From the IMG/VR virus record IMGVR_UViG_3300025639_000003: a DNA stretch of 64,000 nucleotides; one strand, given 5' to 3'. Source of the DNA: a virus. A program made the translations under genes and the position numbers. This document shows, one piece after another, positions 44,985-45,500 of this stretch (the first letter of the stretch is position 1; each line of letters starts with the position of its first letter). The notes below the pieces were generated by a model. The model made no database searches. It was not told where the DNA came from and was given only the letters and a program-made list of their open reading frames with translations.

Positions 44985-45500
44985 ATTGAGGCGGTGATTC
45001 TGTTGCCAAGTCCACCGCCCAAAACTCCGCTAACCTAATTAATTCTAGGCAGCAAGTGCGTAATTGCTTTCTGCATTTACTTTTGTGTTCTGTTTAACGA
45101 CAGCACTTGTCGATTCTCAATATTGGCTACTTTAATGCTTGTCGAAACTATTCTCCCCCACAAAAATTGTTTAGTCACACCTGAAAGTCCTGCAGAACTT
45201 CATGAACGCCACTTGCGGCTAAGGATACATGGGAGTTTGTTGTCCCTTGTTCACAAACGTTCATATATACATCGCAGAACCCATAATCGCTGGTCTGGTG
45301 CTAGGTTAAATGGATCCGTTGACTCTGGGCGAATTCACCCTCACCATCCTTTAATACGTTCCATCTATTCTGCTGAGTATATCATATGTACCGCATTCAG
45401 TATATATGCATTATACATCTACCCTAAACAATTTATGTGGAGGAGGTGGGAATCGCACCCACGTCCAAACATCTTTCGCCAATACGTCAACGAATTCTAA
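44985..45500 (-). ncRNA. ssrA: Circularly permuted (two-piece) tmRNA
   Basis: T-arm GTGGG-TGCGATT-CCCAC and acceptor strand CTCCTCC-A (45462-45438) lie upstream of the 5' end GGGGGAG...TTCGAC (45159). The acceptor stem has a G3:U70 pair. Tag frame GCA GAA AGC AAT TAC GCA CTT GCT GCC TAG = AESNYALAA (45074-45045). P2 pairing TATTGGC/GCCAATA. Confidence 0.9.

Follow-up and report, generated by a model that had tools for sequence, protein, structure and literature searches.

Two-piece tmRNA is said to have been described for Alphaproteobacteria (Caulobacter) by Keiler, Shapiro and Williams in 2000. Among phages, the nearest described case is that of Melnitz EXVC044M, which carries a two-piece ssrA (Buchholz et al. 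2022, PMC9004378). Permuted tmRNAs numbered 53 in 18,146 phage genomes, 50 of them being marine or aquatic, and Mosig is another published phage example (PMC9004378). A tmRNA database of 2025 holds 79 phage sequences, and the spacers of permuted tmRNA genes have been found to contain cargo, namely a tRNA-Ala in GCA-2688965__sp002688965.2 and a repeat element in HGM16780__sp944390355.1 (PMC11915505). Phage tmRNAs have been catalogued rather than understood.

The window analyzed here is a stretch of 64,000 nucleotides of viral DNA (IMG/VR record IMGVR_UViG_3300025639_000003). The original prediction, that its minus strand carries a tmRNA gene of the permuted two-piece type, was borne out by two Rfam models (RF04321 and RF01849) and by all of the features it had named. 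The novelty attributed to this kind of tmRNA was nevertheless overrated, because phage-borne permuted tmRNAs had already been published (PMC9004378, PMC11915505). By itself, the tmRNA counts as an ordinary representative of a class already in the literature. The least ordinary feature of the locus is the stretch of 278 nt between the halves, which the original prediction took for plain spacer. What distinguishes the window copy is its conserved, folded spacer of 278 nt, the lack of an encoded CCA, and the fact that it is missed by ARAGORN.

The tmRNA gene and its surroundings

Window 45495-44989 (minus strand) is very probably an intact ssrA gene, specifying a circularly permuted, two-piece tmRNA of the alphaproteobacterial type. 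Both Rfam covariance models exceeded their curated cut-offs: RF04321 (tmRNA_permuted) scored 99 bits against a cut-off of 47 (E 4.6e-18, span 45495-45045, minus strand) and RF01849 (alpha_tmRNA) scored 60.3 bits against a cut-off of 50 (span 45551-44989, minus strand). As listed in Table 1, the acceptor piece (T-arm and acceptor 3' strand) comes first on the minus strand, followed by an intervening segment and then by the coding piece with the tag. Besides the T-arm and the acceptor stem, the minimum-energy fold of the precursor (45500-44985; z = -5.4, with 0 of 100 shuffles folding as well) recovers the two inter-piece helices as well as the 3' hairpin.

Table 1. Positions of the parts of the tmRNA locus in the window
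Feature	Position	Strand	Description and basis
Acceptor piece	45438..45495	-	3' strands of inter-piece helices, T-arm, CUCCUCC, discriminator A73; Rfam and fold
Coding piece	44990..45159	-	GGGGGAG, UUCGAC region, 5' strands of inter-piece helices, PK1-position hairpin, tag, 3' hairpin
Intervening segment	45160..45437	-	278 nt; conserved multi-branched fold; candidate excised RNA
T stem GUGGG/CCCAC	45462-45458 / 45450-45446	-	Loop UGCGAUU; direct reading
Acceptor 3' strand CUCCUCC	45445-45439	-	Discriminator A at 45438
Acceptor 5' strand GGGGGAG	45159-45153	-	Pairs with CUCCUCC
Inter-piece helix UAUUGGC/GCCAAUA	45484-45478 / 45127-45121	-	Model alignment and free-energy fold
Inter-piece helix AUGUUU/AAGCAU	45472-45467 / 45140-45135	-	Model alignment and free-energy fold
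Tag frame	45045..45074	-	GCA GAA AGC AAU UAC GCA CUU GCU GCC UAG
3' hairpin GGCGGUG/CACCGCC	45019-45013 / 44996-44990	-	Loop contains UGGCAACAGAA, as in the alpha_tmRNA consensus
Terminator-like hairpin	44954..44979	-	GAUCGCC-GAAA-GGGAUC, one bulge, then U7
Sigma-70-like promoter candidate	45519..45547	-	ATGACA, 17 nt, TACAAT with TG; 10/12 matches

Direct reading of the sequence agreed with the acceptor stem that had been proposed (GGGGGAG/CUCCUCC-A with G3:U70 and CCA absent). This stem has seven pairs, the third of which is G3:U70, making up the alanine identity set together with the discriminator A; the A at 45438 is followed by CAU (A|CAU), so that CCA is not encoded. The final GGCAACAGAA hairpin could likewise be read directly, and the two pairings said to join the pieces are present both in the Rfam alignment and in the minimum-energy fold. 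The tag had been given as AESNYALAA-stop, which is what we read between the resume codon GCA (45074-45072) and the stop TAG (45047-45045), and this stretch aligns to the tag region of both models. Before the tag, where a pseudoknot is expected (PK1), we find just a hairpin, for which 3-4 tertiary pairs are possible, and T-loop position 55 is a G where U is usual, as is also the case in more than 100 marine viral tmRNAs.

As for the signals flanking the gene, the predicted terminator stood in part: its hairpin and U7 are visible by eye, while a simple terminator scan gave no call. The promoter candidate sits about 24 nt upstream of the tmRNA, within the end of the upstream 93-aa ORF; such sites are no commoner regionally than in shuffles, so that it is the position of the candidate that speaks for it.

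ARAGORN, the check that had been suggested first, yielded neither a tmRNA nor a tRNA on the window. The program was also silent on the contigs L003 and L017, two loci with the 278-nt-type segment, yet it calls six relatives that encode CCA and whose spacers are shorter (Melnitz and five others, including the one with a 245-nt spacer). Consequently, we regard its silence on the window as a limit of the tool and not as counter-evidence. Surveys based on ARAGORN overlook tmRNAs of the window type, and the resulting counts of phage tmRNAs are too low.

The window stems from a marine T4-like myophage that is uncultured and has the methylotroph phage Melnitz as a relative; methylotrophs or SAR11-type bacteria come into question as its hosts. 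All genes around the locus lie on the minus strand, with a G+C content of ~35%, and the neighbors are of T4 type (a split gp43 polymerase, clamp loader, helicase, RegA, Hsp20 and MazG). The polymerase is less than 50% identical to those of cyanomyophages, and the closest cultured relative is Methylophilales phage Melnitz, whose ribonucleotide reductase shares 71% identity with that of the window. Among metagenomes, sediment runs represent the window DNA best. Neither SmpB nor a CCA-adding enzyme turned up among the ORFs of the window that were scanned or in the contigs of a sister lineage (see below), which are genome fragments; the scanned ORFs also gave no sign of an integrase or of an attachment context.

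Some other ORFs of the window deserve mention. The gp43 gene (40830-43765, minus strand) is split into ORFs of 499 and 373 aa, between which lies a 96-aa ORF of no known family (41941-42231); the sister-lineage polymerase is a single open frame of 842-856 aa. The 93-aa ORF directly upstream of the tmRNA (45497-45778, minus strand) has no PHROG or Pfam match. Its end is strongly divergent in L001, where the adjoining tmRNA and intervening segment are still 97% identical. An 81-aa ORF without a Pfam family (9199-9444, minus strand) encodes the most conserved protein between both phage lineages (83-84% identity in amino acids and 84-85% in nucleotides). Finally, a gene for a SegE-type GIY-YIG homing endonuclease (20179-20649, minus strand) shows ~36% identity to its sister-lineage version.

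The intervening segment in two phage lineages

The same segment occurs in a second T4-like lineage, the sister lineage (L002, L003 and identical copies, as well as L008, L015, L016 and L019). The tmRNA of this lineage scores 88-90 bits; its inter-piece helices differ in sequence from those of the window, but are still paired, and its tag, ADDNFAVAA, differs as well. Judged from sequence, this change with the parts kept argues for selection on function. The proteins common to the window and the sister lineage are 26-84% identical (39-42% for the N-terminal part of the polymerase), and the T-arm plus intervening block, with 88.8% identity over 331 nt, is the best nucleotide match between the two. 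The intervening segment is in fact more conserved than much of the mature tmRNA, and its variants are mosaic between the lineages.

Beside the sister tmRNA we observed a set of genes that looks unusually bacterial (DnaK, DnaJ, a FadA-like thiolase, a FadB-like dehydrogenase, PRPP synthetase, a TPP enzyme, an FTR1-like permease, DHFR and a class 3 lipase). The sister contigs with those genes are L008/G001 (IMGVR_UViG_3300013111_000141) and L012/G002 (IMGVR_UViG_3300028198_000256). The possibility that the sister contigs are bacterial, raised by DnaK, DnaJ, FadA/B and PRPP synthetase, was rejected, because T4 gp23, gp43 and a T4-type RNase H are also present. A further contig, L017 (positions 300-450, from a sediment metagenome, coverage 1.7x), is of the sister type up to the T-arm and of the window type from the acceptor strand on, and its inter-piece helices would therefore mismatch. 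L017 probably arose by chimeric assembly across the 30 nt of T-arm that both lineages have in common; it suggests that both lineage types occur in that sample.

The identical T-arm is found in at least 120 viral-contig stretches, nearly all of which are permuted tmRNAs; the tags among the matches listed include, for example, ANESYALAA and ANDNKYALAA. These matches, as listed, comprise more than 45 other classes, whose spacers measure 7-124 nt, apart from one of 245 nt that contains an ORF, as compared to 278 nt in the window. Again among the T-arm matches listed, the other classes start the spacer with an encoded CCA (TCA in one class), and A|CAU is seen only in the window family.

The consensus fold of the segment comprises 82 pairs, with 98.8% of the cells paired and five pairs changed on both sides, in an alignment of only eight distinct sequences from two lineages. 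The observed covariation score was reached in 0 of 500 shuffles, and when partners were shifted by 1-3 columns as a control, only 34-48% of the cells paired. Compensatory changes occur in the terminal helix that continues the acceptor stem, in two long-range helices and in a GGGUG-AAUU-CGCCC hairpin; the 3' 110 nt of the segment are invariant, which makes covariation uninformative there. The terminal helix, 11-15 bp long, extends the acceptor stem and closes the multi-branched fold, the resulting stack consisting of 7 + 3 pairs, one U-U mismatch, and then 11 pairs. The intervening segment is, on these grounds, a conserved, structured RNA in its own right.

Several conventional identities of the segment were considered and discarded. 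A coding role was rejected in view of single-base indels between the lineages and of short frames that are not conserved. Searches of Rfam at E up to 10, with 1.1 kb of the locus and with the segment alone, returned nothing above noise (mir-297, SNORA27, and manA with 10 bits). With no Rfam match at E up to 10, a riboswitch, self-cleaving ribozymes, RNase P RNA and 6S RNA were rejected, as was a group I intron (no Intron_gpI match at the same threshold). Splicing cannot be the purpose of the segment, because the joined flanks would close the acceptor stem.

Exact-word scans of viral contigs and metagenomes (16-, 17- and 20-mers) located the segment in the two lineages only. A similar scan of bacterial species representatives, with the sensitivity of exact 16-20-mers, gave two matches, both of them chance 20-mers, and an nhmmer profile of the segment run over 1.5 Mb of related loci detected no further copy. 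When the window locus was compared by BLASTN with 50,697 phage records there was no match, nor was there any for the sister-lineage locus. RNAduplex comparisons between the segment and the mature pieces were uninformative.

RNA contigs, maturation and possible roles of the segment

Among marine metatranscriptomes, 14 runs belonging to 8 studies contain the sister-lineage gene. In the four runs whose RNA contigs were examined, stops were seen at L003 3721/3722 and 3740/3742 in three studies, that is, 8-10 nt either side of G1 (L003 3730), the predicted RNase P site, bearing in mind that assembled contigs cannot prove RNA ends. Two runs yielded a 249-nt contig entirely within the intervening segment, with listed depths of 11-21 versus ~5 for the coding piece, although contig depth cannot rank RNAs. 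One run had a contig linking the acceptor piece and the segment, and one had a contig across everything. Regions that no RNA contig covers were given no weight as evidence. These sister-lineage contigs give a weak hint, in that they fit an RNase P cut at G1, processing into two pieces and an intervening RNA that persists.

Run X29 contained a 68-nt RNA contig (L003 4008-4037) made up of the T-arm, CUCUUCCA, CCAAU and GGGGGAGAACAGUUUCGAC. This contig represents a related permuted tmRNA in which CCA is encoded and the spacer is 5 nt long, and which may come from a host or another phage. We rejected it as an empty site or a spliced form of the sister gene, because its coding piece differs and its junction was not found in viral DNA contigs.

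As for processing, charging and tagging, the following scheme is what we infer. A single minus-strand precursor would start at the sigma-70-like site (45547-45519) or derive from read-through from upstream. Host RNase P would cut 5' of G1 (45159), and an RNase Z-type endonuclease, or trimming, would expose A73 (45438). An endonuclease is expected at A73 because the gene lacks an encoded CCA and its 3' trailer folds stably, so that exonucleases would hardly get across it. CCA is an anti-determinant for RNase Z, which it blocks. An encoded CCA would thus prevent this cut, a possible reason why CCA is missing precisely in the window family. These two cuts would probably also free the intervening segment, as a third RNA.

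Because CCA is not encoded, extra host steps would be needed: the host CCA-adding enzyme would build the tail on A73. Host AlaRS would then charge the RNA via G3:U70, and host SmpB would bring the two base-paired pieces to stalled ribosomes. Ala-AESNYALAA would be appended to the stalled chain and the product degraded by ClpXP-type proteases. For a T4-like phage, the benefit might lie in freeing ribosomes from broken messages made during infection. Given that no phage SmpB was found, the RNA would rely on SmpB, AlaRS, RNase P and the CCA-adding enzyme of the host; the ribosome rescue that the original prediction has the phage provide for itself would require SmpB from the host.

The intervening RNA, of ~250-278 nt, may even be the main product of the locus, with the tmRNA halves acting in part as processing handles, an arrangement compatible with tmRNA function and to which we give just under an even chance. 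In keeping with it, no nucleotide stretch is better conserved between the two lineages, with their protein identities of 26-84%, than the T-arm plus intervening block, and the consensus fold of the segment is paired almost throughout (98.8% of cells, with five two-sided changes, versus 34-48% in the slid controls). RNA contigs consisting of the segment only occur in two studies at the depths given above (11-21 vs ~5 for the coding piece), and other cargo is found at the same site (the 54-aa ORF of Melnitz, the ORF of L108, and a tRNA-Ala, PMC11915505). Against this, the comparison comprises just eight distinct sequences from two lineages, covariation is silent in the invariant 3' half of the segment, contig depth is no measure for ranking RNAs, and no Rfam family, motif or partner protein that hints at a function was found. 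Moreover, nothing is missing from the tmRNA parts, which are conserved as well.

Along the same lines, we tentatively propose that the segment founds a new structured phage RNA family, which uses the tmRNA gene as a launch pad and is released by an RNase Z-type enzyme and RNase P, a proposal that we rate as possible though rather short of evenly balanced. With the same reserve, the released RNA of ~250-278 nt might be stable, abundant in marine metatranscriptomes and acting alone during infection.

It seems unlikely, by comparison, that the segment is a mere scaffold for processing or folding, with a long terminal helix and a compact fold that would keep the halves joined until cleavage, and with no existence of its own afterwards. 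The terminal helix does stack directly onto the acceptor stem (7 + 3 pairs, the U-U mismatch, 11 pairs), and nearly all of the short spacers of relatives form a helix of the same CCAUAAAC.../...GUUUAUGAU type. However, 7-31 nt suffice in those relatives, so that ~250 extra conserved nucleotides would be needless for such a role, and the segment is better conserved than much of the mature tmRNA. A released, stable RNA is accordingly the reading we prefer, tentative as it is, over a mere scaffold.

In mycobacteriophage DS6A, ssrA consists of the tRNA-like domain only, and such molecules have been reported to inhibit tmRNA (PMC4131195). Despite this precedent, and although neither the scanned ORFs of the window nor the sister contigs yielded a phage SmpB, it is very improbable that the window locus is a host-derived fragment or decoy devoid of tagging (be it an SmpB-titrating tRNA-like domain that blocks host trans-translation, or a dead pseudogene), since nothing has been lost from the tag frame (with its resume-codon context and ALAA end), from the inter-piece helices or from the 3' hairpin, the same parts are retained through sequence change in the sister lineage, and the ORFs scanned show no integrase or attachment context.

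Comparison with known systems

The ssrA of Melnitz (MZ577097.1, 45984-46436) scores 113 bits on RF04321. Like the window gene, it is a permuted alpha-type tmRNA gene of a related T4-like marine myophage, with a tag ending in YALAA, a terminal helix that prolongs the acceptor stem and extra sequence in the intervening segment. Melnitz, however, encodes CCA, whereas the window gene does not, and its ssrA is found by ARAGORN. The Melnitz intervening segment, of ~145 nt, contains a 54-aa ORF with a Shine-Dalgarno site in place of the conserved non-coding fold of the window, to whose intervening segment Melnitz shows no nucleotide similarity by BLASTN. Furthermore, a glnA-type glutamine riboswitch follows the tmRNA in Melnitz, but not in the window, where the glnA motif gave no match at E up to 10 (44700-45800). 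The Melnitz ORF (L170 1584-1748) is unannotated, has 54 codons, lies behind a GGAGAA and runs into the 5' end of the coding piece; ORF-like cargo also occurs at the same site in L108/L138 (245 nt) and in L060.

With the alphaproteobacterial two-piece tmRNA (RF01849), the window gene shares the order of the parts, the tRNA-like domain and the inter-piece helices, as well as the tag region and the conserved UGGCAACAGAA loop of the last hairpin. Unlike the Caulobacter type, it resides on a phage of the lytic type, is much reduced past the tag, has a tag of nine codons, contains a structured intervening segment of 278 nt, and does not encode CCA.

Another possible parallel comes from the tRNA cluster of T4, which reportedly includes species 1 and 2, small, stable, co-transcribed RNAs with no function assigned to them that are released by host tRNA-processing enzymes. 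These, too, would be structured phage RNAs from a tRNA-type precursor, although they do not lie within a tmRNA gene and are likened here by description only.

The published cases of cargo in permuted tmRNA genes resemble the window in that the spacer tolerates an insert, and the tRNA-Ala case involves an RNA gene that tRNA-processing enzymes would release (PMC11915505). There, a known tRNA or a repeat makes up the cargo, each in a single genome, whereas in the window the cargo is an unclassified 278-nt fold that has been conserved in two phage lineages. The Melnitz ORF, the L108 ORF and the tRNA-Ala, all at the same site, imply that the spacer of permuted tmRNA genes is a permissive site for co-expressed cargo. 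The cargo in the window is a conserved folded RNA, expressed in the ocean according to the sister-lineage RNA contigs; should this RNA turn out to be a stable product, phages would have a new structured RNA whose release mechanism is built in and driven by host enzymes.
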